32,000 nucleotides of DNA from Nostoc sp. PCC 7120 = FACHB-418 (GTDB lineage Bacteria; Cyanobacteriota; Cyanobacteriia; Cyanobacteriales; Nostocaceae). Of the stretch, positions 8,475 to 31,721 are shown piece after piece (the first letter of the stretch is position 1; each line of letters starts with the position of its first letter). The notes under the pieces were generated by a model. It was given only the letters and a program-made list of their open reading frames with translations. It was not told where the DNA came from and searched no databases. The stretch is from the NCBI RefSeq assembly GCF_000009705.1, contig NC_003276.1, positions 120,001 through 152,000 of the forward strand. Direction: 5' to 3'. The translations under genes and the position numbers were made by a program.

Positions 8475-11400
8475 CTAGAAATTTACTCCTTTTTGATAAT
8501 CAACATCATAGCCGATATCACCAACGAAAGAAAAGCGACGGACAAAATCAAATATTTGTTTAATATCCTCTAATGTTAAGTTATCTGGAATTACTTTGTC
8601 TATATCATGTCGAAGTTTATTTAACTCTTCATAAAGATAGGAATGATGCTTATATTTATTTTCATGTTTTTGTAAAGATTCTCGGAAAAAATTTATAAGA
8701 TTATCATTGATTGGCTGATTACGATATTCTTCGTAACGAGATTCAATATCTTTCAATAGATCGCGCATTAAATCAGGATAACGTCCTGAAAAAGCTAGTA
8801 AAGCAAGAATAGCCTGTTGTTCTTTTGCAGAAGATTTATGTCCTTGGATGCGATTGAGAACTTTAAATAGTTTATAAACATTGGTAAGTCGTTTGAGACT
8901 TCTGGGAGATAAATCTACTTCTTGACAGCACTGCACTAAGATATTAAATTCTTCTGGTGAAAATTCATTAAACTTATTACCACTGATACCACTATCTTGA
9001 ATAGCTACTTGAGATTTAAGATATTGTCTTAAGGCTGAGTCAGCAATTGAAGTAACCCGATAGGGAATTTGAATAATTTTTTCCAAATAGTCAGCAGGAG
9101 AAGGACGACCTTGACTAGAAAGCACACCTTGATAATATTTTGCTAAAGCGCGATTGATATAGCGTTCGTCAATAGCAACTACGGCAATAAACAAGCGATT
9201 TTTGACCAGGAGTTGTACTGCTTCTAAAACTTGGACAACTGTATCAGGAGAACAGCGATCTAGGTCATCAATATATAATATGACTCTTGCTGGCCCGCGT
9301 GGAAAAGCTTTTTTCAAAAAGTCGATTTTAGCAGCGTAATCTTTACTATCTGCTGGTGGTGGTAATAACTTGTAACTCAAAGCAGCTAAGTCTTGTTTGA
9401 CTTGGTGCATAATTCCTAGTCGCTTTTCGTAGCTTCCATTATTGATGCGAGCGCTGATAAACTCACCTAAAGAAGCATAGATATTTTCTGGTAGTTCTTG
9501 TTGTTGTTTTTCTAATTTATTTCTAAGTTCAAGGACTTCGCCTTCTAATTGCCTAATCTTTGCATTTTCTTCAGCTTGTTTTTGTTCATTGGCAATTTTT
9601 GTTTCCACATCATTAATTTTGTCATTCCTGAGTGATGCAAGTTCTTCATTAACTTCGATGAGTCTTTCATCTTGCTGGATGGCTTTTTCTATTCCTTCCT
9701 GGATAGATTCTTCTATTTCTTCCTCACGTTTTTTAACTAACTTTTGTACTCTTTCCTCTAACGCTTGCTCATATGATGTTTTATATTCATTAAGTGCAAG
9801 CTGAGTCTCATCGTACCATTTCTTACCTGTTGTCCATAAGGCTTGTAAAGTTGCGATCGCTGGTAACATAGGTGTAAAAAAGCCCACTACCTGCGCTATA
9901 ACTTTAGAACTTCCAAGATTATTAAAAAATTGAATGCCAGCAGGTAGAAGGATAGCTAATAGTAAACAAACAAAAAATATAATAATTAATAATTTATTTT
10001 TCTTTGCCCATTCCCTAACACTATATAATGTTATGGATTGGTAATTATTACTAATCGCTACTGTGACTACTCCCTTTAGCCAAGAACTAACTTTAGTAAT
10101 ATCATCAGATTTAATATTAATTTTTAAGTTAATCTTTTTATTAACTTCTGCTTGTATTTTTTCATCAAAAATTTTATTGAAGCCTTGATCACCTAAAGTA
10201 CGCTCAAGAACAACTGCGGAATATCCTAAAATCAAATGTATTTTTTTCTCGTTATCAGAAGGTTCAAGTTTCACCTCACTACTTTGTTTTTCTCTGATGT
10301 CTGCAACTATTTCATCTAGCCTAATCTGTAATCTTTGCTCTGCATTTGCTAATCGCTCTTGCAGGTCTTTATCCCGTTCGCTTAAATTAACAAGTAGATT
10401 TTCTTTTCGTACTTGAAGTTCCTTTTCCTTATTTATTAATTCTTCTTTCGTTTCTTTATAAGAGCGAATAGAGTCTCGCTGAGATTTAGTGAATATTTGC
10501 CAGAGATTATCTGGAAAATCTTGTTTCTGTTTAGAGTCTTGAAAATTTTGCAGTTGTTCTACTGTTAATACTCGTTCTAAAAACCAGTTTCTATCTTCTT
10601 CACTAACTTGATATAAAACCTGCCAAATTTTTGCACTATTTTCGGCACAGGGTTCAATTCCTACCTTAATTAACTGTTGTTCTAAACTAATTTGTCTATC
10701 TAATTCAAAAAAGATAGTCTGCATTAAACTAGCCCAAAGGTCAGATTTAGCATATGTCCAAGCATCAAACTTGATCTGGTAAATATGACCTACATAAGGG
10801 TAAAGTTCGTCACTACTAGGATTTTCACTCCAAGCTTCTTGTTCCGTAATTCCTTCACTACGAACTTCTAGTATTCGGTTTTGCATTAAGTGCAGAATGT
10901 AAGATTTACCGCCACCCCAACCGCCAAGAATACCCACAGCCACAGGTGGTTCTAAATCTCGCATTAGCAGCATATTAGCAAGGGCATCAATTTCGTCTTT
11001 AAGATTAAGTAAATCTTCATTTAAGTCAGTATCATTGCGAAAGCTACCTCCAATTAAAGCATCTCTATAAGTTTTTCGCAGGATTCTTAAAGAGCGATAC
11101 CAAAGTTCATTAGGGATTTTACCTTTTGTCTGTTCTCGGTCTATTTCACGGATAATACGGATAGGTAAATGGGGTTTAAGAACAATTAAAATTTGACGTT
11201 GTTGCCATTGAGTAAGTGAATTTTCTAACTCTGACTGATTTTTCTCTGCTAAAAGTTCTTTTTTTGGTTTTATTTTTTCTAAATCTTTTAAAATCTCAGG
11301 TAATATCTCAGGCACTTCTATCGCTAAACGACACAAAAGTTCAAACCCCTGCACATAATTTTTTTGTGGTACAAAATCTTCTGTTTGATTTTTAAAATCT

Positions 11401-14400
11401 TGTGCTTGTCTTTTAGCTTCTGTTCGGACTTGAGGGAATTTACAAGCTAAGGCAATTAAACTTTTAACTCTGTAATACTCTTCTTGAATCTCTTGGGCTA
11501 TACTTTGCGCTTCTAAAAAATTGTCTGGCTGGAGGTAAGGAACTAAACGTTCAAGATATTTGTATTGTAAATATGATATATTCAATTCTCGAATAGCTCT
11601 CAATGCTTTATGCTGTTTTTGTGGAGAATACAGAGCCAAGTCCGTTAAAATTTCTGTTTTTTCAGAAAGAATTGGGCTAACATAGGCTATGTCTACAATG
11701 TTTGAGCTAATACTATCAAATTCTTCATCGCTTAATTCTTGTGTCCAGAAATTTGTTAAAACCTTACATTTGGCACTTTGACTTTTAAAAGAATCAGCTA
11801 AATTTATTATTTTTGTCGAGTCTTCTTTAGACAAATTATGTAATAGAGATAAAGCACTAAGAATTTGAGCTTTATAATCTTCTTCTTTCAGATTATAAAT
11901 AATTTCAAAAATACCGTTTCTGTCATGGTCAGGTAGTAAAGTTACTAACTCAGTTAAGATTTTAGTTTTATCCTGTTCATTCGTAATAATATTTTTAACT
12001 AAGCTGAATATTTTACTTATAATTGAATGAATTTCAGCCGTTTCATATAAATTATTTTTATGTCCTTTCCTTAAATTAATAGTTACATTATTAAGGATAC
12101 AGGCTTTTAAAGTTAAATCTTGAATTTTATTTTCTACTATATCTACAGTTTGTGGGATTTGACTGATGTATAAATGTGGAATTAAATTACAAAGAGCTTG
12201 TGTCCGGTGATATTGTCCAGGAATTGATTTTTCTATTAAACTCAGGGTTTCTCTACGCAGTTCTCTAGGAAGGTAGGGAGCTAGATTACTAAAGGCTTCG
12301 GCTCGATAAGCAGGATGAAAAATATTTTCTGTAATGACACGTAATGCAGTAGGTATAAGCCCTGAAGAGAGACGAGGAGCTAATGCGCTAATAAATTTAG
12401 TTTTATCTGAATCATTTCTGGATTGTTTAATTATTTCTAAGGCAGCAGAAAATTGATAGCTAGAAATACGAGAAGCAACTTCTTCAGGAAAACGAAAGGC
12501 TGATTGATTAAGAGCTTTAATAAGATTTTGTTTCTGCTTAATTTGAAATATTATATCTAAAAATTGTTGTATAACTTGGGCTTCAGAGGGTAAATATGGA
12601 GCAATTGCAGCAATAGTATTAGCTTGTTGTAACTCATTCTCAGTTGCTTTTACTATCTCAAGTATTTTATAAAGTAATGGTAATCCAGATCCAGATTTTG
12701 GTAATTGAGAAAGTATAGATGCAAAATCTTGTGCTTGCTGATACTCACTATCAATATCTTTTGCTTTTTCAAGAGCTTGCTCTAACAATTTAATACACTC
12801 ACGTTCTTTTAAGTGAGTTGCCAGAGTCACTAAATCATCAAATTGGCAAGATTGATACTGAAGATTTTCTGCAATTTCAAAAGCTTTGTCTAACGATTCT
12901 GGTGAGGATTTAGATAAATAGGGGATAACAACAGCTAAAGCCTTAGCTTTGCTGCTATCATTCTCAATCGCTTTTAATCTTTCAATAATTTCTAAAAAAA
13001 AAATTTTTACCTGATCAAATTCAGACAAGTGTGTAGCGACAAAAGCTAAGATTTCAGCACCTTTAAAAGTGTCATTTTTTATTGTCTTTGCTATCTCAAT
13101 AACCTTTTCTTTTTGTTCAGTTTTGCTCAACAGAGGCACAATAATTTTAAGTTCGTTAGCCCGTAACAAATCGCTATAGTTAGCATCTAAAAGCATTTTT
13201 AGGGCTTCTTGTAGCACTTCTGAGCGTTTGGGTTCAGGTAAACAAGGTGCAGCAGAAGCTAAAGAAGAAGCTGTTGCAGAAAAATATTTTTGCAAAAATT
13301 CTGTTTGTTGCGGTTCTCTTAAGTAAGGAATAATAGCAATTCGATGTTTATGATGTGAATGATAGTATGTATTTTGAGCTATTTTAAGATATTGTTCTAA
13401 TAATTCTGGTTCAGATTCAGAAAGTTGATAAGCAATAGCGGCTAAAGCTTCATCTTTTTGCTCATCACTATTAATTTTTTTAGCTATCTCAAGAGCTTTT
13501 TGTAGTAAACTTGGATTAAATTTACGTAATTGAGGAGCAACAGCAACTAGAGCTTGTGCTTTAGCAGAGTCATAGGTAGAAACAAGTTTTTCAATTATTT
13601 CAAGTGATTTGTCTAGTAAATGTGACTCAAAATCTGACAAGTGAGGAATAACTGCCACTAAAGCTCTAGATCGGGCATTATCATATTCAATTGTTTGTAT
13701 TATTTCAAAAGCCTTTTCTAATAATTGTGATTTCGATTGAGGTAAGTGAGGTATAACAGCAAATAAGGCAACAACTTTACTAGCACCTTCTTTTATATTT
13801 ATCGCTATTTTAAGAGCTTGTTGCAATAACTGAGGTTCTAATTTAGATAAGTGAGGAGCTAAAGCTACCAGTGCTATAGCTTGGTCATAAGAACCAAATT
13901 CAAGATTTTGAACTATATTAAAAGCTTTTTGTAACAGCTTTGACTGGGATTTAGATAAGTAAGAAGCAATAAAAACTAAAGTTTCGCTTACGCCACTTAT
14001 GAAATTTGGCCAAATATTTTCAATTCTTTCTAAAATAAGATATAAAACTTCATTGCATTGAGTTTCTTTTAGGTGAGGTGCAATAGCAGCTAAGGCTTTT
14101 ATTCTGTCATATTCTTCATTGGCAATTTTGTATGCTATTTCAAGAGCTTGCTGTAGCAATATTGGTTCAGATTTAGGTAAGTAAGGAGCAATAGCAACTA
14201 GAGCTTCACGTTGATAATCTCCACGTTCCAAATTATTTACTATCTCAAGGGTCTTTTCTAATAATTGAGGCTCAAATTCAGTTAATTGCGGAGCAATGAT
14301 AGAAAAAATATTAACTCCATTCTCTATCTTTTCTGGTAATGCTTCCAAAGCTTGTTGAAAAACTTCTGTACGCTCATCTTTATCTAAAAGAGCAGCAAGA

Positions 14401-15368
14401 TTTATTAATGAAGTGATATTTTCAACACTTATAAAGTCAGTGCTACCTCTAGTTTTTCTTACTAAATCAAGAGCTTTTTTTAAAATCTCTCTACGTCGAG
14501 GCTCATTTACATGAGGAGCAATAGTAGCTAATCCTTTGATTTGGTAAAATTCATTATTAATATTTTGTGCTATGGTCAGAAATTGTTCGATAATCTCTGA
14601 ATCAATTTCCTTTAAATTAGAGGTGATAAAAGCTATAGCTTCAACTCCAGCATAGTAATTAATATTCTGCGTTATTGACAAGAGTTCTTGTAATAATTGT
14701 GGATTGATTTCGGTTATTTGGCTAGTGATAACAGTTAGAGCTTCAGCTTGTAAATAATCAACTTTTATGTTTTGTACAAATTTAAGGGACTGTGTTAGCA
14801 CTTCTGTTTTTAGAGGTTTAGGCACATGAGAAGCAAGAGCGGCTAAAGTTTCTGCTAGTTCTGAAGGTCGTTCGTGATTCTCTATTACTAATAAAGCCTG
14901 TTTTAATATTTCTGTAGACTCTGGTATAGATAATTGAGTAACTATAAAAGCTAAGGCTTTAGCTTGGTAATAATTATTCTCAATATTCTGGGCTATTTTA
15001 TAAACCTCTTGTATCCATTGCGGTTGAGACTTAGGCAAGTGAGGTGCTATCGTAATTAAAGCTTCTGATCGCAGTTTTTCATCTTGAATCCCCTGGACGA
15101 TTTTGCAAGTTTTCTGTAGTATTTTTGGCTCAGATTCGGGTAAATAAGTAACAATAGCAGTTATAACTTTTTTAACTTGGTCAAACTCGTCCAAGCTCTT
15201 TGCAATGTCAAGAGTTTGTTGCAGTACCGTTGACTTTGATGGCAGTAACTCGGCAACAAAGCTGGTCAGTGCTTCTACTTTTTTCTCATCATCAGTAATG
15301 GTCTTAATATCTTTTAACCATTCCAATAAATCTTGACTCAATAAATACTGGCTTTGCTCTAATGTCAT
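8475..15368 (-). CDS. Giant KAP-family P-loop NTPase with about 30 N-terminal HEAT/ARM-like repeats, coiled coils and a TM hairpin inserted in the NTPase domain
   Basis: 2297-aa ORF. The N-terminal roughly 1300 aa (nt about 11400-15280) are 35-40-aa units of the form AL..IAPHLP.S.P.LLQ.AL.IA..I (for example AIAPYLPKSEPILLQQALEIAYKI and ALAPHLSKLEPQLLQQALKIAINI). Walker A is GILGGWGGGKSYIL (nt about 10907-10936). FDAWTYAKSDLW is the KAP-typical motif. The hydrophobic helices are LLIIIFFVCLLLAILLPAGIQFF and IAQVVGFFTPMLPAIATLQALW (nt about 9838-9996). Walker B is VILYIDDLDRC (nt about 9255-9290). E/K/Q-rich coiled coils flank the TM hairpin. Confidence 0.85.
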   Translation of the reverse strand: MTLEQSQYLLSQDLLEWLKDIKTITDDEKKVEALTSFVAELLPSKSTVLQQTLDIAKSLDEFDQVKKVITAIVTYLPESEPKILQKTCKIVQGIQDEKLRSEALITIAPHLPKSQPQWIQEVYKIAQNIENNYYQAKALAFIVTQLSIPESTEILKQALLVIENHERPSELAETLAALASHVPKPLKTEVLTQSLKFVQNIKVDYLQAEALTVITSQITEINPQLLQELLSITQNINYYAGVEAIAFITSNLKEIDSEIIEQFLTIAQNINNEFYQIKGLATIAPHVNEPRRREILKKALDLVRKTRGSTDFISVENITSLINLAALLDKDERTEVFQQALEALPEKIENGVNIFSIIAPQLTEFEPQLLEKTLEIVNNLERGDYQREALVAIAPYLPKSEPILLQQALEIAYKIANEEYDRIKALAAIAPHLKETQCNEVLYLILERIENIWPNFISGVSETLVFIASYLSKSQSKLLQKAFNIVQNLEFGSYDQAIALVALAPHLSKLEPQLLQQALKIAINIKEGASKVVALFAVIPHLPQSKSQLLEKAFEIIQTIEYDNARSRALVAVIPHLSDFESHLLDKSLEIIEKLVSTYDSAKAQALVAVAPQLRKFNPSLLQKALEIAKKINSDEQKDEALAAIAYQLSESEPELLEQYLKIAQNTYYHSHHKHRIAIIPYLREPQQTEFLQKYFSATASSLASAAPCLPEPKRSEVLQEALKMLLDANYSDLLRANELKIIVPLLSKTEQKEKVIEIAKTIKNDTFKGAEILAFVATHLSEFDQVKIFFLEIIERLKAIENDSSKAKALAVVIPYLSKSSPESLDKAFEIAENLQYQSCQFDDLVTLATHLKERECIKLLEQALEKAKDIDSEYQQAQDFASILSQLPKSGSGLPLLYKILEIVKATENELQQANTIAAIAPYLPSEAQVIQQFLDIIFQIKQKQNLIKALNQSAFRFPEEVASRISSYQFSAALEIIKQSRNDSDKTKFISALAPRLSSGLIPTALRVITENIFHPAYRAEAFSNLAPYLPRELRRETLSLIEKSIPGQYHRTQALCNLIPHLYISQIPQTVDIVENKIQDLTLKACILNNVTINLRKGHKNNLYETAEIHSIISKIFSLVKNIITNEQDKTKILTELVTLLPDHDRNGIFEIIYNLKEEDYKAQILSALSLLHNLSKEDSTKIINLADSFKSQSAKCKVLTNFWTQELSDEEFDSISSNIVDIAYVSPILSEKTEILTDLALYSPQKQHKALRAIRELNISYLQYKYLERLVPYLQPDNFLEAQSIAQEIQEEYYRVKSLIALACKFPQVRTEAKRQAQDFKNQTEDFVPQKNYVQGFELLCRLAIEVPEILPEILKDLEKIKPKKELLAEKNQSELENSLTQWQQRQILIVLKPHLPIRIIREIDREQTKGKIPNELWYRSLRILRKTYRDALIGGSFRNDTDLNEDLLNLKDEIDALANMLLMRDLEPPVAVGILGGWGGGKSYILHLMQNRILEVRSEGITEQEAWSENPSSDELYPYVGHIYQIKFDAWTYAKSDLWASLMQTIFFELDRQISLEQQLIKVGIEPCAENSAKIWQVLYQVSEEDRNWFLERVLTVEQLQNFQDSKQKQDFPDNLWQIFTKSQRDSIRSYKETKEELINKEKELQVRKENLLVNLSERDKDLQERLANAEQRLQIRLDEIVADIREKQSSEVKLEPSDNEKKIHLILGYSAVVLERTLGDQGFNKIFDEKIQAEVNKKINLKINIKSDDITKVSSWLKGVVTVAISNNYQSITLYSVREWAKKNKLLIIIFFVCLLLAILLPAGIQFFNNLGSSKVIAQVVGFFTPMLPAIATLQALWTTGKKWYDETQLALNEYKTSYEQALEERVQKLVKKREEEIEESIQEGIEKAIQQDERLIEVNEELASLRNDKINDVETKIANEQKQAEENAKIRQLEGEVLELRNKLEKQQQELPENIYASLGEFISARINNGSYEKRLGIMHQVKQDLAALSYKLLPPPADSKDYAAKIDFLKKAFPRGPARVILYIDDLDRCSPDTVVQVLEAVQLLVKNRLFIAVVAIDERYINRALAKYYQGVLSSQGRPSPADYLEKIIQIPYRVTSIADSALRQYLKSQVAIQDSGISGNKFNEFSPEEFNILVQCCQEVDLSPRSLKRLTNVYKLFKVLNRIQGHKSSAKEQQAILALLAFSGRYPDLMRDLLKDIESRYEEYRNQPINDNLINFFRESLQKHENKYKHHSYLYEELNKLRHDIDKVIPDNLTLEDIKQIFDFVRRFSFVGDIGYDVDYQKGVNF

Positions 15369-15611
15369 GTTTTGGATAATACTTTTAAATAGCCCTATTT
15401 ACCAAGAATACCAATTTGTTTTGAAAGGTAATCATCATATTTACCTTTAGTCACAAACTTTTAATGATTCGCCTTAATACCCAGTGCATTTAAGTGAATA
15501 AGTATGTGCGACTGTTCAAATTCTTACCAATTTGTACTGTAAAGTAAAGTAGTATTTTACTATAGCGATAGTCACTAATTTTCTCAGTATCCTGTTGCGA
15601 ACAAAGTCATA

Positions 15612-16025
15612 TTACTCCCCCACCGGATACCGCCGCATCATCTCCGCCAACGCCACAGCCTCCCCATCCGCCGTGTACACCACCTCACCCGACATCGCAA
15701 TCACAATCCGCTTCTGCCTCGCCCACTCAAACCAAGCGATCGCCCCCGACTTAGCCTGCTGCACCTCCGGTTTCCGTCCCTCCCGACAAGCAGCCACAAA
15801 CACAGCCTCCGGTGACTTAACCCCCTTCCAAGTCCGCACTGCCTCCTTCAAATATGCGATCGCCCCCGGCACATTCTCCCAGTACCGCTTGACCGTGCGC
15901 TGAATCTCCCCGTTTAACCGAAACTGAGGGGTACAAGGAATCTCCCTCAACTGCTGCAATATTTCCTGAACCTCCTGCTGACTTGGCTGTACTGATTTAT
16001 CTACAGGCTCAGGCAGCGATCGCAC
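15612..16025 (-). CDS. C-terminal-domain-only paralog (stand-alone gene or remnant) of the 19638..20753 product
   Basis: 137-aa ORF. From KSVQPSQQEVQEILQQLREIPCTP... to ...AEMMRRYPV it aligns without gaps to the C-terminus of the 371-aa protein, with 8-9 amino-acid differences. Its own N-terminus (MRSLPEPVD) is unrelated. Confidence 0.5.
   Translation of the reverse strand: MRSLPEPVDKSVQPSQQEVQEILQQLREIPCTPQFRLNGEIQRTVKRYWENVPGAIAYLKEAVRTWKGVKSPEAVFVAACREGRKPEVQQAKSGAIAWFEWARQKRIVIAMSGEVVYTADGEAVALAEMMRRYPVGE
15621..15995. repeat. Direct repeat copy A (375 bp), partner at 19680..20054
   Basis: Hand alignment gives the same length, no indels and about 43 mismatches (roughly 88-89 percent identity). 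Both copies are in the same orientation. Confidence 0.9.
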
Positions 16026-16219
16026 TTTTGGTGGGGCATCATCGCATCTGGTCTTGATTACTATCCGCTAGATCAGGACTTCTGCGTAAGAGCAATAACT
16101 TTACTGGCTTACTTATAAGCTTGTTGAGCTTGTGTAGACAGGAAGCCTTGAAGTCTGTTGCCAACTTAAGTATAAATTGCTATTCTCCAGTAAGATTTTA
16201 CTCCTACTGAAAAGCCTGT

Positions 16220-17137
16220 ATGCCCATCCCTGACTATCAAGCGATAATGCTACCGTTACTCAAATTTACCACCGACCAGAAGGAACACTCACTACAGGAA
16301 ACAATTGATGCTTTGGCAGATCACTTCCAATTAACTGAAGATGAACGAAAAGAACTCTTGCCTAGTGGCCGTCAACCAACTTTTAATAATCGTGTAGGGT
16401 GGGCGCGTACTTATTTAAAAAAAGCAGGATTAGTGGAGTCAACTAAACGAGGCTATTTCCGTATAACTGATAGAGGAATCGATACAATTAAAACTAATCC
16501 TGTTGAGATTAATGCTAAAATTTTAAGACAATTTCCAGAATTTCTAGAATTTCAAAACTATACTCAACAATCAGAGGAAAGCACATCTAATGGTAGTGGG
16601 ACTGAAATCAATACAACTCGCACACCAGAAGAAGATGTAGAGCTTGCCATTCAAAAGCTGACAAAAGAATTAGCATCAGATTTACTACAGATAATTAAAA
16701 ATTCTTCTCCTGCTTTCTTTGAAAAACTGGTAGTCGATTTATTAGTCAAAATGGGCTATGGTGGTACTCGCAAGGATGCAGGCAAAACAGTAGGGCGTAG
16801 TGGCGATGGTGGAATTGACGGTATCATCAATGAAGACCGTCTTGGCTTAGATGTGATTTATATTCAAGCTAAACGCTGGGAAAATTCTGTAGGTCGTCCT
16901 GAAATTCAAAAGTTTGCTGGTGCTTTGCAAGGGTTTCGAGCTAAAAAGGGTGTGTTTATAACAACATCAACATTTACAAATGAAGCTAAAGACTATGTTT
17001 CAAGAATTGACAGCAAGATTGTTCTGATTGATGGTGAAATGCTTACTCAGTTAATGATTGAAAATAATGTTGGTGTTACGCCATTTACTGTATATGAAGT
17101 CAAGAAAGTTGATTCAGATTATTTTACGGATAGTTAA
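16220..17137 (+). CDS. mrr: Mrr-family type IV (modification-dependent) restriction endonuclease
   Basis: 305 aa. The N-terminal Mrr_N-like winged helix reads MPIPDYQAIMLPLLKF...RVGWARTYLKKAGLVEST.RGYFRITDRG. The C-terminal catalytic core reads GRSGDGGIDGIINEDRLGLDVIYIQAKRW (D...D-x-QxK PD-(D/E)xK variant), followed by FAGAL......KGVFITTSTFT. Confidence 0.9.
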   Translation: MPIPDYQAIMLPLLKFTTDQKEHSLQETIDALADHFQLTEDERKELLPSGRQPTFNNRVGWARTYLKKAGLVESTKRGYFRITDRGIDTIKTNPVEINAKILRQFPEFLEFQNYTQQSEESTSNGSGTEINTTRTPEEDVELAIQKLTKELASDLLQIIKNSSPAFFEKLVVDLLVKMGYGGTRKDAGKTVGRSGDGGIDGIINEDRLGLDVIYIQAKRWENSVGRPEIQKFAGALQGFRAKKGVFITTSTFTNEAKDYVSRIDSKIVLIDGEMLTQLMIENNVGVTPFTVYEVKKVDSDYFTDS

Positions 17138-27395: not shown

Positions 27396-27650
27396 ATGAG
27401 TAAACAAATATCCGAATCACATAACTACAAATGCCATCAAATAGCCAACATTCTGCACCTCAATTTATCTACCGTCCGTCTTTGGATTAACCGGGGCTGG
27501 CTCAAGGCAAACAAGCGTTGTCCAAAATATTACGAGATTAGCATTTCTCATCTCAAAGAGTTTCTAGAAAATCCACCACATCAAATCCAAAAACGGATTG
27601 CATCTCTTGATTCCCAAACCATTAATTATTTGTTCGGTAAAAAAGTATGA
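27396..27650 (+). CDS. Helix-turn-helix DNA-binding protein, excisionase/MerR-like (HTH_17-type)
   Basis: HQIANILHLNLSTVRLWINRGWLKANK....YEISISHLKEFL matches the excisionase-family HTH pattern (A..L.....TV..W...G.L.A........I....L..FL). Confidence 0.6.
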   Translation: MSKQISESHNYKCHQIANILHLNLSTVRLWINRGWLKANKRCPKYYEISISHLKEFLENPPHQIQKRIASLDSQTINYLFGKKV

Positions 27651-28105
27651 CAGAACAAATCACAGATTTAGAAAGATGTTGGTTTTTATCCCCACCTTGG
27701 GGTCAAGAAATTCCCCCGGTTGAAATCAATTTATCTGAAAAAGTCTACTTCAAAACTGATAGAACATTTGGCTACTGCTGTGGAGTGCAGTGGTATGGCG
27801 ATTGCTGGAATTACATTATTGAGATCAAAAATGACTTCATCTACGCCACAAAAGATCAAATTATTGCCACCGGTAATATACAACCCAGCACTGTGAAAAA
27901 ACCTTCTTTCGTGTTGGGAGAGCGGGTACTGTTGCAATTTGGCGATCGCGGTACAAAGCAAAGGCTAATTCTGGGGATTGAGTTAATCGAAAAGTCCTGG
28001 TTTTATCTGGTGGAGTTGGCATCACCTAGTTTTTCTGCATCATCCACCATGACCAATCGCTTTTCTTTGGTGCGAGAAGAAGACTTGGTGCGGGTGAGGG
28101 TCTGA
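27647..28105 (+). CDS. Hypothetical protein (152 aa) with two SH3-like-looking modules
   Basis: An ATGA start/stop overlap with the upstream gene indicates translational coupling. Modules: TDRTFGYCCGVQWYGDCWNYIIEI and GERVLLQFGDRGTKQRLILGIELIEKSWFYLVEL. Confidence 0.65.
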   Translation: MTEQITDLERCWFLSPPWGQEIPPVEINLSEKVYFKTDRTFGYCCGVQWYGDCWNYIIEIKNDFIYATKDQIIATGNIQPSTVKKPSFVLGERVLLQFGDRGTKQRLILGIELIEKSWFYLVELASPSFSASSTMTNRFSLVREEDLVRVRV

Positions 28106-28401: not shown

Positions 28402-29037
28402 ATGACTTACTATGTCCCAGCCAGAAAGCCACAATCAGTGTTTAGAGTAACACTTAAAACACTGCGGCGAGGGGAAGAATCAGGAAAGATTAAGACAATC
28501 AGAACCCCAAACGGACAGAGGAGATATGACATTGATTCCGTCCTACCAACTCAAAGAACAGACAAAGCAATCATCCTCTAGGGCAGGGTTTCTCGCCACA
28601 CTCAACAGTCTGACCTGGAAAGACAAATACAGTTTCTTGTCGCTCGTTACCCCAGTAGTGAAGTCATCCAAGAAGTCGGAAGCGGACTCAACTTCCGAAG
28701 AAAAAAGTTACTTGCCATACTGGAACGAGTTCTCGCAGGCGATGTCAGAATGGTTGTGGTCTGCCATAAAGACAGATTATGCAGATTTGGATTTAAACTC
28801 ATCCAATGGTTGTGCGAAAAATGCAATTGTGAACTCGTGGTTCTCAACCAAGCTCAGTTATCTCCAGAGCGAGAAATGGTTGAGGATATTCTGGCAATCA
28901 TCCATGTCTTCAGTTGCCGACTGTACGGACTCAGAAAATACAAACAGGAAATCCGTAAAGGTTTGCACGCAATACCGGATGATATTAACACTAGAACAAG
29001 AGCAATTGTTAATGAAGTGGGTAAGGCTGAATCGTAA
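28402..29037 (+). pseudogene. tnpA: IS607-type serine recombinase TnpA interrupted by one in-frame TAG at codon 60 (28579-28581)
   Basis: Hand translation: MTYYVPARKPQSVFRVTLKTLRRGEESGKIKTIRTPNGQRRYDIDSVLPTQRTDKAIIL*GRVSRHTQQSDLERQIQFLVARYPSSEVIQEVGSGLNFRRKKLLAILERVLAGDVRMVVVCHKDRLCRFGFKLIQWLCEKCNCELVVLNQ... This has the MerR-like HTH, the (Y)xRVS catalytic motif and a resolvase fold. The stop sits where family members have Tyr. Confidence 0.8.
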
Positions 29038-30187
29038 AACCTACAACATGGCAATAGCCTACCTCAATCAAAAGCAGGGATTTGACAGAACAGGGATTGG
29101 AGGCACAGGAAAACAAGCATTCAAGACCTTTTTTAAAGCCCACATCCGACCAGACTGGTTAAAAAATGAGCTACCCGCAGCGATTTTGGATCAAGCTGTT
29201 ATGGAGGCATACTCAGCGTGGAGTACGACACAGCGCCATCCCAAAACTATTAGTAAGGGTAAAGACAAAAAGCCACATCCACAAGCTGGGTTGAAGATTG
29301 CCAAGTTTCGCTCTATTCGTGACTCATCGCAGACATTACAGTTTAAGATTGCATCTGATTTAAACAAAGGTCGATTGCTACCGCAGTACTGGGGTGAGCT
29401 ACCAGCGTTTGAGTGTGTTGATAATGGTGTCAGGTTTTGCCCAATCTCTAATCCTTATACTCCAGAAGTCACATATAAACATAGTCGATTCTACATTTCA
29501 TTACCAGAGGATGTAGAAGTCGTTGACAATAACAAAGATGCGTTCATTGCTTTTGACCCTGGTGTGCGGACATTCCTCACAGGTTTTGATGGTCAGAAGA
29601 TGATTGAGTTTGGCAATGGTGACATTCATCGAATTGTCAGATTATGTCAATGGTTAGATAAACTCCGTTCATTCAGGGATTTATCTAAAGGTTTCAAGAA
29701 CCGTCATCTGCGCTATCGGCTATCCCAAAAGATGAAGCGGGTAACAAGACGGATTCGCAATCTTGTGGATGAAATGCACCGCCAAGTTGCATCTTGGGTG
29801 GCCAAGAACTACAGGGTGATTGCCTTACCAACTTACGAAACATCTCAAATGGTTTGTCGCGCCGTGCGTAAAATCAAAAGCAAAACGGCGCGGTCAATGT
29901 TGAGCTTTGCTCCATATCGCTTCAGTCAAGTGTTAGAGCATCAATGTACCAGAAATGGCTCGGTTTTGATCCGGCACACTGAAGAATTCACCAGTAAGAC
30001 TTGTTCTCGTTGTGGGCATATCCACTATTCATTAGGCGGACAAAAAATCTTTAAATGTTCCAATTGCGGCAATCATCTACCGCGAGATTGGAATGGAGCC
30101 TTGGGGAATTTCCTCAAGGCGTTGTGGGATACCACCTTGCTGAACTCAGCAAGCTTTGATTGCGTTCAGATGACAGTCTTTGTCTAG
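28904..30187 (+). CDS. tnpB: TnpB (IS607-associated RuvC-type RNA-guided endonuclease family)
   Basis: QYRMILTLEQEQLLMKWVRLNRKTYNMAI is a typical TnpB N-terminal strand plus helix. RuvC motifs are IAFDPGVRTF, ALPTYETSQM and LPRDWNGALGNF. The zinc ribbon is CSRCGH...CSNCGN. The start is uncertain: ATG at 28904 (MSSVADC...), 28979 (MILTLEQ) or the track start at 28526. Confidence 0.85.
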   Translation: MSSVADCTDSENTNRKSVKVCTQYRMILTLEQEQLLMKWVRLNRKTYNMAIAYLNQKQGFDRTGIGGTGKQAFKTFFKAHIRPDWLKNELPAAILDQAVMEAYSAWSTTQRHPKTISKGKDKKPHPQAGLKIAKFRSIRDSSQTLQFKIASDLNKGRLLPQYWGELPAFECVDNGVRFCPISNPYTPEVTYKHSRFYISLPEDVEVVDNNKDAFIAFDPGVRTFLTGFDGQKMIEFGNGDIHRIVRLCQWLDKLRSFRDLSKGFKNRHLRYRLSQKMKRVTRRIRNLVDEMHRQVASWVAKNYRVIALPTYETSQMVCRAVRKIKSKTARSMLSFAPYRFSQVLEHQCTRNGSVLIRHTEEFTSKTCSRCGHIHYSLGGQKIFKCSNCGNHLPRDWNGALGNFLKALWDTTLLNSASFDCVQMTVFV

Positions 30188-30405: not shown

Positions 30406-31617
30406 CTAACCGCAAAGCAGTGTAGCGGGAGATTCTTGCTTCTCAGAAACACGCTTTTTGGCACAAGTACCAACGAGTCTTACTGTTTCTCCGCAAGCTT
30501 GAATTTCTGCGTGTCCCGCAGTATTTGTTTCTAGTATTCTTATCCCTTCTGTCCTCAAGTTCCGTGAAGCATTTTCATCTCTGTCGTGGGTTGTTTGGCA
30601 ACTTGGACAAATCCACTCACGGATACTTAAATTCAGCAAATTATTCTTATGACCGCAGCATGAACAAAGTTTTGAACTGGGAAAGAATCTGTCAACTTGA
30701 ACAAATTTACCTCCTTCTCTTTCCAGTTTGTAGCTGATGAAATTAAGCAGCATACCAAAACCAGCATCATGTATTGACTTAGCTAATTTGGTACGTGCTA
30801 GACCTTTAACGCAAAGGTTCTCAGCTACTATGATTTGGTTATCATCAACTAACTTTCGTGAGAGTTTATGGAGAAAATCTTGTCTAGTGTTTGATATTTT
30901 TTCGTGAACTTTCGCAACTACTTTAATTGCTTTTCGTCTGTTGTTAGACCCCTTGACCTTACGAGATAAAGCTTTTTGTCTAATTCGCAGTCGTTTTGCA
31001 TATTTTCTGGTGGGTTTGATTGGGTCAACCTTGTAACAAGTTTCACCATCAAACACAGTTATTAAACTGGTTAGTCCTAAATCAATTCCTGATATTTTGC
31101 CTTGCTTGTTGTTTGTTAAATCTTTGGCTTCAAATAAGAGTGCAGCAAAATATTTACCTGTACTTGTCTTGGAAACAGTTACAGATTTGATTTTGCTATT
31201 AATTTTTTTTGAAAGACTGACTTTAACAATCCCAAGCTTAGGTAGTTTTAAACCACTATCTTTAATCGAACAACTCTCAGGGAATCGGATGGACTGTTTA
31301 GAATGCTTGCTTTTGAATTTTGGAAATCCAGCACGTTTAGAGAAAAAGTTTTTAAACGCAGATTCCAAATTCTTGAGTGACTGTTGTAGAACGGCAGCAG
31401 TTGGTTCTTGCAACCATTCATAATCAGACAGTTTCTTCAACTGGGTAAGGTCTTTAGCCATCTGGCAGTAAGTCATACCTTTACCAGTTTCTTCATATTG
31501 AGTATTGGTTTTATTGAGGTAGAAATTCCAAACAAAGCGAGAACAACCAAAGCTTTTAGCTAAGGATATTTCTTGCTCTTTGTTTGGATAAATTCTGACC
31601 TTCAGTACGTCTAACAT
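30406..31617 (-). CDS. tnpB: TnpB (IS200/IS605-family RNA-guided endonuclease)
   Basis: MLDVLKVRIYPNKEQEISLAKSFGCSRFVWNFYL. RuvC motifs are ISGIDLGLTSL, IIVAENLCVKGL and HDRDENASRNL. The zinc ribbon is CSCCGH...CPSCQ. I prefer M21 (31617) over the track start at 31677 because family members begin a few residues before the (K/R)xRIYPN strand. Confidence 0.9.
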   Translation of the reverse strand: MLDVLKVRIYPNKEQEISLAKSFGCSRFVWNFYLNKTNTQYEETGKGMTYCQMAKDLTQLKKLSDYEWLQEPTAAVLQQSLKNLESAFKNFFSKRAGFPKFKSKHSKQSIRFPESCSIKDSGLKLPKLGIVKVSLSKKINSKIKSVTVSKTSTGKYFAALLFEAKDLTNNKQGKISGIDLGLTSLITVFDGETCYKVDPIKPTRKYAKRLRIRQKALSRKVKGSNNRRKAIKVVAKVHEKISNTRQDFLHKLSRKLVDDNQIIVAENLCVKGLARTKLAKSIHDAGFGMLLNFISYKLEREGGKFVQVDRFFPSSKLCSCCGHKNNLLNLSIREWICPSCQTTHDRDENASRNLRTEGIRILETNTAGHAEIQACGETVRLVGTCAKKRVSEKQESPATLLCG

Positions 31618-31721
31618 CAATATATTTTTGAGAAACTTATGAGGCAGTGTGGTCTTGGGGGTTTCCTCCATGAACAACTGCCGGTGGTAATATACTGCTT
31701 ACCGCTAACTCTTGTCAATAT

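Follow-up and report, generated by a model that had tools for sequence, protein, structure and literature searches.

A plasmid-borne KAP NTPase of Nostoc sp. PCC 7120 with a membrane hairpin in its core and a long HEAT-like repeat arm, a candidate receptor of biological conflict

Architecture of the giant KAP protein

The region analysed here, hereafter the window, is a stretch of 32,000 nucleotides of Nostoc sp. PCC 7120 (= FACHB-418) DNA (contig NC_003276.1, positions 120,001 to 152,000), located on a replicon that we take to be the alpha plasmid, pCC7120alpha. It contains a gene for a giant protein in which a membrane-anchored KAP NTPase, split by a transmembrane (TM) hairpin, stands behind a HEAT-like solenoid of about 1400 amino acids (aa) that comprises a proximal arm and about 27 fast-diverging distal repeats (Table 1). 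The open reading frame (ORF) that an earlier note had read from the letters of this DNA proved to be complete, and its product is 100% identical to BAB78214.1. The protein is already known as an annotated KAP NTPase: the source records describe it as a plasmid 'P-loop NTPase fold / KAP NTPase domain-containing protein' of Nostocaceae (Anabaena sp. FACHB-709 and relatives; the Nostoc/Anabaena PCC 7120 group), and the Nostoc sp. PCC 7120 entry in these records is a partial copy. The identical full-length sequence is present on 16 contigs, the largest of 408,621 bp. In the annotations of some strains the start codon is placed about 170 codons further downstream; the long-start form is preferred here because the extreme N-terminus is conserved among homologues.

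The assignment of the C-terminal region to the KAP family, made in the earlier note from motifs, is borne out by the Pfam profile KAP_NTPase (PF07693), which matches with 113.8 bits (E 1.2e-32; curated cutoff 20 bits) in two separated stretches. The better of them covers aa 2012-2166, and both together extend to position 287 of the 293 profile positions. The two Walker motifs, A and B, are 548 residues apart. Each of the 11 full-length homologues retains the former along with the hydrophobic hairpin, their order being unchanged, and 10 of them retain the latter, P0011 being the one with no Walker B match. In a Pfam scan the protein showed no match to the NB-ARC, NACHT, AAA_16, Ank, SAM or YobI-type families. 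Its identity with QatA was rejected, as the NCBIfam QatA model scores 82 bits against a cutoff of 600 and covers only about 110 residues; similarly, a QatABCD system was rejected on the grounds of a partial PADLOC match to QatA and the lack of QueC-like or TatD-like neighbour genes in the window. The PADLOC match of the giant protein to PifA (E 9e-8) concerns a part of the NTPase only, and this identity was rejected as well.

In the whole 2297-aa protein just two segments exceed a Kyte-Doolittle 19-residue mean of 1.6, the hydropathy criterion on which the TM call rests, and both lie where the earlier note had placed them, between the Walker motifs, inside a helical insert of about 400 aa. Lysine and arginine residues are present on both outer flanks of the hairpin (REWAKKNK ahead of the first helix and LWTTGKKW behind the second), and the two helices are joined by a loop of about 10 residues, QFFNNLGSSK. 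The outer positive charges and the short loop fit an in-in hairpin, in which, by the positive-inside rule, both halves of the NTPase would be cytoplasmic. The conservation of the insert is low, with 21-30% identity at aa 1601-1900 and up to 44% at aa 1901-2000. Around the hairpin, a low-confidence AlphaFold2 model of aa 1400-2297 shows helices that are 74, 66 and 52 residues long, and the segments flanking it consist in 35-43% of E, K, Q and R. The long helices described in the earlier note are hence predicted here too, and coiled coils in this place are plausible.

Ahead of the KAP domain, where about 30 degenerate repeats had been noticed, a self-trained hidden Markov model recognised 31 units with a period of 35-36 aa; about 27 of them are clear (aa 29-945), and degenerate ones continue to about aa 1310. 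The mean pairwise identity of the units is 21%, and no DNA-level tandem repeat of the unit period was found in the gene. The repeats of the protein are old and have diverged. The AlphaFold2 model of aa 1-1150 is an all-alpha solenoid (pLDDT 80) of 64 helices, that is, of about 32 helical hairpins, in which the proximal arm, modelled to aa 1150, has the highest pLDDT (~90). The best PDB matches of this model in a Foldseek search are the HEAT solenoids Utp10/Utp20, RanBP5, CAND1, mTOR and Kap121 (E 1e-8 to 1e-6); the global TM-scores are low (0.13-0.32), which is expected for long flexible solenoids. The model thus predicts for aa 1-1150 the HEAT/ARM-type stacking of helix-turn-helix units that the earlier note had proposed. 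No curated HEAT, ARM or TPR family of Pfam matched significantly, and a search at E<=10 with the eight cleanest units returned noise only. The only solved sequence relative of the repeat is the repeat protein TON_1535 (PDB 3ZPJ), which was reached by the family profile only (E 2e-11), as PDB searches with single sequences gave no match; a literature search for TON_1535 found nothing. The repeat, with the signature RAxALxxLAPHLPE, represents a distinct sequence family for which Pfam has no model, and a new curated family could be built on it (proteins P0012-P0038 and P0173-P0318).

Relatives of the KAP core and of the repeat

A search with the KAP part alone retrieved 224 proteins. The proximal arm (aa ~911-1400) is shared by the nearest relatives (42-56% identical), in which distal repeats are scarce or absent. 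As to the KAP parts, those of the fusion subfamily group most closely, with 42-69% identity, as compared with <=38% for most others. The sister TM-KAPs, which are of cyanobacterial and Chloroflexota origin, are 29-40% identical over the KAP part and have the long TM-bearing insert in common. Their architectures, in which the domain order was checked on examples, include TIR-WD40-KAP, caspase-KAP, PNP_UDP-KAP, TIR-KAP, Trypsin_2-KAP, EAD7-KAP and PG_binding-KAP, in place of the APHLP-type solenoid and proximal arm of the Nostoc protein; the N-terminal slot of the TM-KAP clade is exchangeable. The TIR, caspase, PNP, trypsin and EAD domains are effector or adaptor domains of NTP-dependent conflict systems in multicellular bacteria (Kaur et al., PMC7159879), and KAP can displace STAND in such systems (PMC8195603). 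In the wider KAP clade, between one and five hydrophobic segments are present between the Walker motifs, and the spacing of these motifs is 370-690 residues, mostly 430-570.

Fusion homologues are 35-52% identical overall, with the catalytic motifs and many other residues invariant. Their identity is unevenly distributed: it amounts to 64-74% in the NTPase halves and to 28-33% in the distal repeats, where large copy-number indels occur. When one genome was scanned for each of 185,579 species, the clade was found at 80 loci, in cyanobacteria, Chloroflexota, Gemmatimonadota, Planctomycetota, Myxococcota and one Desulfosarcina. The repeat+KAP fusion itself is patchily distributed, at about 20 loci or species, nearly all of them cyanobacterial; those outside this phylum are an Aureispira metagenome-assembled genome (MAG) and a MAG labelled Rhizobium. 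A megablast search of PLSDB with the fusion gene gave no match, and tblastn with the KAP part gave only two weak matches in rhizobial plasmids and none in phage genomes. Phormidium sp. FACHB-1136 (NZ_JACJRS010000051.1; L009, L052) has two paralogous repeat+KAP genes about 13 kb apart, with ORFs of 2246 aa and of an apparently shorter 1114 aa. At the locus of the metagenomic relative P0063 (L088, 7813-14008), the start of a 1335-aa KAP gene shares 8 bases with a 731-aa ORF that has no match in Pfam; two separate genes may encode the arm and the KAP part there, or a frameshift may be present.

Results of our searches indicate that the repeat is not confined to the KAP fusions. Of the 38 hits of the first database search, 27 were non-KAP proteins that matched via the repeats only; most of them contain NB-ARC, AAA_16, NPHP3_N or NACHT, some also carry TIR, Trypsin_2 or CHAT, and EAD domains too occur among the repeat-bearing STAND proteins. 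The signature RAxALxxLAPHLPE is identical in the KAP fusion and in the STAND proteins. An exhaustive phmmer search, in which eight repeats were run against a set of 1.84 billion representatives, yielded 1993 proteins at E<=1e-3, of which 1011 remained at E<=1e-10 and 184 at E<=1e-30; the about 2000 matches are to be understood as clusters at 50% identity. The best 146 retrievable matches comprise 13 repeat+KAP fusions, the rest being not KAP, and the domains detected in 32 sampled non-KAP matches are NB-ARC (13), NPHP3_N (8), AAA_16 (6), NACHT (5), APAF1_C (4), trypsin (3) and EAD4 (1). In all named STAND examples the repeat arrays are located C-terminally to the NTPase, and so they are in 47 of the 59 top representatives that could be scored. 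To judge from these sequences, the repeat type otherwise occurs in the C-terminal, sensor position of NLR-like STAND proteins. The repeat-sharing STAND proteins are enriched in cyanobacteria and other multicellular bacteria.

Genomic setting, composition and strain variants

The giant gene is convergent with a gene encoding a STAND protein, and 138 bp separate their stop codons. On its other side, the genes encoding a Mrr restriction enzyme and a second, PifA-like KAP protein are directly beside each other; the latter protein has no TM-grade segment (maximum Kyte-Doolittle value 1.44). With its Mrr, PifA-like KAP and NB-ARC-WD40 STAND genes, the setting resembles a defence island. The four same-strand genes that follow (Table 1) may represent a further defence module or a prophage remnant; the Bro-N protein encoded by one of them matches the PADLOC candidate family PDC-S13 (E 6e-44).

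Table 1. Features of the giant KAP protein and of the genes around it (positions in the window, position 1 being its first letter)
Feature	Residues	Position	Strand	Basis or remark
Giant KAP gene, complete ORF	2297 aa + stop	8475..15368	-	ATG start
Distal repeat array	aa 29-945	12534..15284	-	~27 helix-turn-helix units of 35-36 aa, consensus QAEALAAIAPHLPESESQLLQKALEIAQNIK
Proximal helical arm	aa 946-1400	11169..12533	-	Degenerate repeats, conserved across subfamily
KAP P-loop domain, N-terminal half	aa 1401-1600	10569..11168	-	Family mean identity 64%
Walker A, GGWGGGKS	aa 1482-1489	10902..10925	-	Motif; catalytic Lys aa 1488
Insert inside NTPase domain	aa 1601-1990	9399..10568	-	E/K/Q-rich predicted long helices either side of TM hairpin
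Hydrophobic helix 1, LIIIFFVCLLLAILLPAGI	aa 1794-1812	9933..9989	-	Kyte-Doolittle 19-residue mean 3.12
Hydrophobic helix 2, VIAQVVGFFTPMLPAIATL	aa 1823-1841	9846..9902	-	Kyte-Doolittle 19-residue mean 1.77
KAP domain, C-terminal half, and conserved C-terminal helical region	aa 1991-2297	8478..9398	-	Pfam; family identity 65-74% at aa 2001-2200
Walker B, ILYIDDLD	aa 2030-2037	9258..9281	-	Motif
Partial ORF, RTX calcium-binding nonapeptide repeats and PD40 beta-propeller repeat	at least 1551 aa	3-4655	-	Runs off left window end
STAND protein: NB-ARC/NACHT (aa 112-267), pentapeptide repeat (aa ~522-556), ~13 WD40	1189 aa	4768-8337	+	Convergent with giant KAP gene
Type IV Mrr restriction enzyme		16220-17137	+	PADLOC mREase_IV, E 6e-98
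PifA-like KAP	706 aa	17174-19294	-	PADLOC PifA, E 7e-121, full-length match
Four genes: 371-aa unknown, Bro-N protein, 544-aa unknown, Cro/C1-type helix-turn-helix		19638-23819	-	
DUF1392 gene		27647-28105	+	Close to TnpB genes
TnpB/IS605 OrfB-type gene		28526-30187	+	Cas12f1-like TNB domain
TnpB/IS605 OrfB-type gene		30406-31677	-	Cas12f1-like TNB domain

As the earlier note had pointed out, the giant gene is AT-rich (GC 0.33) and contains a single HIP1 site, compared with 22 such sites elsewhere in the window. The PifA-like and Mrr genes are of similar composition (GC 0.32 and 0.37, so that the three genes range from 0.32 to 0.37) and contain no HIP1 site. Most other genes of the window have a GC of 0.42-0.49 and 1-3 HIP1 sites each, with the exception of both TnpB genes and the partial RTX ORF, which are devoid of these sites, and of TnpB2, the GC of which is 0.376. 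Low GC as a trait of the whole family was rejected, since a GC lower than that of the flanks, by about 8 points, is limited to the Nostocaceae copies, and in most other genomes the gene and its flanks agree in GC. The 850 bp upstream of the giant gene (15369-16219) have a GC of 0.44 and three HIP1 sites, and contain two overlapping unannotated ORFs, 15612-16025 (-) of 137 aa and 15595-15903 (+) of 102 aa. A predicted sigma-70-like site at 15405-15376 (-) stops 8 bases before the ATG and, if used, would give rise to an almost leaderless mRNA.

None of the neighbour genes of the window recurs near the 22 homologous loci, and the neighbourhoods of seven relatives are entirely different from one another, which agrees with the expectation that the homologues would share no conserved housekeeping neighbourhood. 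In five of these seven, the context includes PIN, HEPN-MNT, HigB or ParE toxin-antitoxin genes, transposases, XisI or integrase. No reverse transcriptase of the kind involved in diversity-generating retroelement-type diversification was found among the ORFs of the window. Copies of the fusion in related strains are either 99.9-100% identical or disrupted, and variation of the repeats by point mutation is absent. For Trichormus variabilis NIES-23 (P0040/P0042) the annotation shows two ORFs, one of 855 and one of 954 aa, and aa 932-1356 are missing, while in FACHB-171 (P0001/P0043) the first ~185 residues are exchanged for an unrelated N-terminus of 22 aa; both variants suggest a disruption by insertion or frameshift. 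The KAP fusion gene is accessory, solitary and patchily distributed.

Comparison with known systems and possible function

Several characterised P-loop NTPases resemble the Nostoc protein in part. KAP NTPases of the EF_KAP type, in whose domain a TM helix is present, give enterococci Walker B-dependent protection against phage (PMC13552941), and PifA is described, as cited in PMC13001434, to cause membrane leakage upon T7 infection. The Nostoc protein shares with both the KAP_NTPase domain with its two Walker motifs and a defence-island-like setting, and with EF_KAP-related proteins also the insertion of hydrophobic helices in the NTPase and the encoding by a single gene with a large extra region, which in EF_KAP is needed for function. 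However, this region is an N-terminal HEAT-like solenoid of ~1400 aa in the former and a C-terminal region of unknown fold in the latter. The Nostoc insert, with ~550 aa between the Walker motifs, is much larger than that of PifA/EF_KAP-type KAPs, and PifA, unlike the giant protein, has no TM helices. Another counterpart is Tmn, a decamer of a TM-split YobI P-loop NTPase, the solenoid arms of which bind phage RIIB, whereupon Mg2+ is exported (PMC13001434). The two proteins are alike in the two-helix TM insertion in a P-loop NTPase, in their single-gene nature and in a membrane-level output, which in the Nostoc protein is conjectural, as well as in cytosolic arms with a solenoid-like repeat domain, which is trigger-binding in Tmn; this resemblance, taken from PMC13001434, is architectural. 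The NTPases belong to different families, namely YobI in Tmn and, by Pfam, KAP in the Nostoc protein, the solenoid of Tmn is C-terminal and much smaller, no sequence match was seen, with no direct comparison to a Tmn or YobI sequence, and neither its decameric state nor Mg2+ export is to be assumed for the Nostoc protein.

The earlier note considered the combination of helical repeats with a TM-inserted KAP domain to be without a characterised precedent. This cannot be upheld, as in Kidins220/ARMS, a founding KAP member, 12 ankyrin repeats stand ahead of a KAP domain that has four TM segments (PMC4632323), and sister KAPs of cyanobacteria carry WD40 arrays. The likeness to Kidins220 consists in N-terminal helical repeats that precede a TM-bearing KAP NTPase. 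In the Nostoc protein there are, however, ~30 HEAT-like repeats and two hydrophobic helices, and the C-terminal proline-rich region, SAM domain and PDZ ligand of Kidins220 are absent. Kidins220 is a neuronal signalling scaffold, whereas the Nostoc gene is a prokaryotic accessory gene, and no orthology is claimed. The analogy with NLRs also suggested in the earlier note is stronger than could be read from the letters, but holds in part: the RAxALxxLAPHLPE repeat is common to STAND proteins of the Avs and bNACHT type, which likewise join a repeat array and a switch NTPase in one giant polypeptide, but in the Nostoc protein the order is reversed, with the repeats N-terminal to the NTPase, and the NTPase is a membrane-inserted KAP with no N-terminal enzymatic effector. 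In the literature searched, no description appears to exist of the repeat+KAP subfamily, of its repeat being identical to the APHLP repeat of STAND proteins, of the conserved proximal arm or of the absence of an enzymatic effector.

We estimate the probability that the KAP fusion is a single-polypeptide, membrane-anchored receptor of NTP-dependent conflict, probably directed against phages, at about 0.5. A defence function in which the repeats act as the sensor would follow from the analogy with STAND proteins and with the KAP and Tmn systems. The solenoid would bind a protein of an invader or a guarded protein of the host. Ligand binding would free the NTPase, which could then bind or hydrolyse NTP and form oligomers. 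The stalk helices and TM hairpins might in turn perturb the membrane, whether through ion export, leakage or depolarisation, with the arrest of the infected cell as a result. The membrane element would be the output in such a protein, because a separate enzymatic effector is absent from it. This sequence of events is modelled on the reported behaviour of Tmn, a TM P-loop NTPase, and of PifA, a KAP protein.

A number of observations speak against this receptor function. The domain order is opposite to that of NLRs. None of seven repeat-sharing STAND proteins was assigned by PADLOC to a validated defence family, their matches being weak and partial ones to NTPase or TIR models; the sensor role of the repeats is therefore a matter of positional analogy. 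Since the N-terminal module of the sister KAPs is often an enzyme, the repeats could be output and not input. Hypervariability of the repeats between strains, which the earlier note had expected, was not seen among the related copies, the variants of which are truncations, a split ORF and an N-terminal replacement. Two of the seven neighbourhoods compared (those of P0002 and P0004) are ordinary housekeeping ones. The AlphaFold2 model of the KAP part, computed from an alignment of 11 sequences, has a pLDDT of 53 and is usable for secondary structure only, and a Foldseek search of the PDB with it gave no significant match, RdrA being the best (E 0.13). In addition, the heptad a/d periodicity of the segments flanking the hairpin is not significant compared with shuffles (p 0.23 and 0.08), and it is for this reason that the coiled coils of the earlier note are unproven.

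The same domain layout could serve a membrane scaffold with no role in immunity, in signalling, in cell-cell communication within filaments or in plasmid maintenance. Kidins220/ARMS is such a scaffold with the same succession of helical repeats and TM-bearing KAP domain (PMC4632323); KAPs were, according to the citations in PMC4632323 and PMC13552941, originally proposed to assemble and disassemble membrane signalling complexes; HEAT solenoids are generic scaffolds of protein-protein interactions (PMC3837014), and the housekeeping surroundings of some homologues would suit this role as well. We consider it unlikely, as the gene is patchily distributed over ~20 species and has no conserved partner gene, is disrupted in close strains, and is plasmid-borne and compositionally foreign in Nostocaceae, while its repeat is common to STAND proteins with death-type effectors (TIR, trypsin or CHAT) and its sister KAPs contain caspase, TIR or EAD7 domains. 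These sister proteins may at the same time be read in another way, in which the KAP/TM module would sense a perturbation of the membrane or an injected component, and the solenoid would be a 'superstructure-forming' effector that sequesters or scaffolds its targets. The N-terminal slot of the clade holds the enzymatic effectors caspase, TIR, PNP and trypsin, its conserved constant is the NTPase with the TM architecture, and Kaur et al. place HEAT, TPR and WD40 among the 'superstructure-forming' domains of the effector position (PMC7159879). TIR-WD40-KAP, however, has both an effector and repeats, and there the repeats lie between the effector and the NTPase, as would befit a sensor. Moreover, the identical repeat type is held by STAND proteins in the canonical sensor position, the trigger-binding part of Tmn is a solenoid arm (PMC13001434), and the distal repeats diverge rapidly and change in copy number, as would suit recognition surfaces. 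Such reversed roles of the two parts are thus rather improbable in our opinion.

It may also be asked whether the ORF is functional at all, or whether it is a horizontally acquired, decaying remnant that is open by chance, or an artefact of annotation. Its low GC and HIP1 depletion relative to its neighbours, the disrupted copies in NIES-23 and FACHB-171, and a literature search with guessed locus tags that found no expression data would be in agreement with this. Nevertheless, an intact frame of 6.9 kb is very unlikely to occur by chance in AT-rich DNA, full-length identical copies are present on 16 contigs, and the catalytic motifs and many residues are invariant among homologues with only 35-52% overall identity, a pattern of conservation that suggests a dN/dS well below 1 across the orthologues. 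A functionless ORF is hence a very remote prospect.

Returning to the conflict receptor, we tentatively propose a broader scheme, which we regard as possible, if somewhat doubtful. The APHLP-type solenoid would be a portable module for immune sensing, transferred between two unrelated classes of switches, cytosolic STAND NTPases, which it follows, and membrane KAP NTPases, which it precedes. The Nostoc protein could in this case be a membrane analogue of NLRs, in which the capture of a ligand by the ~1400-aa arm would be converted directly to membrane damage by a TM-split P-loop NTPase with no separate effector.

The protection from phages by KAP proteins was shown only recently. The family described here combines a strongly conserved TM-split KAP core with a sensor-type repeat of about 2000 clusters, the sampled ones of which are mostly NLR-like, and is therefore a link between two large sets of bacterial immune-like proteins, both of them mostly uncharacterised; our analysis also brings out an abundant repeat family for which Pfam lacks a model. 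As the gene resides on what is presumably the alpha plasmid of a model cyanobacterium that is genetically tractable, its sensor, switch and membrane-output steps could be examined directly. If the solenoid is indeed a portable sensor module, the family would be a tractable model of the coupling of the nucleotide state of KAP NTPases to their inserted TM helices, including that of the poorly understood NTPase of animal Kidins220.

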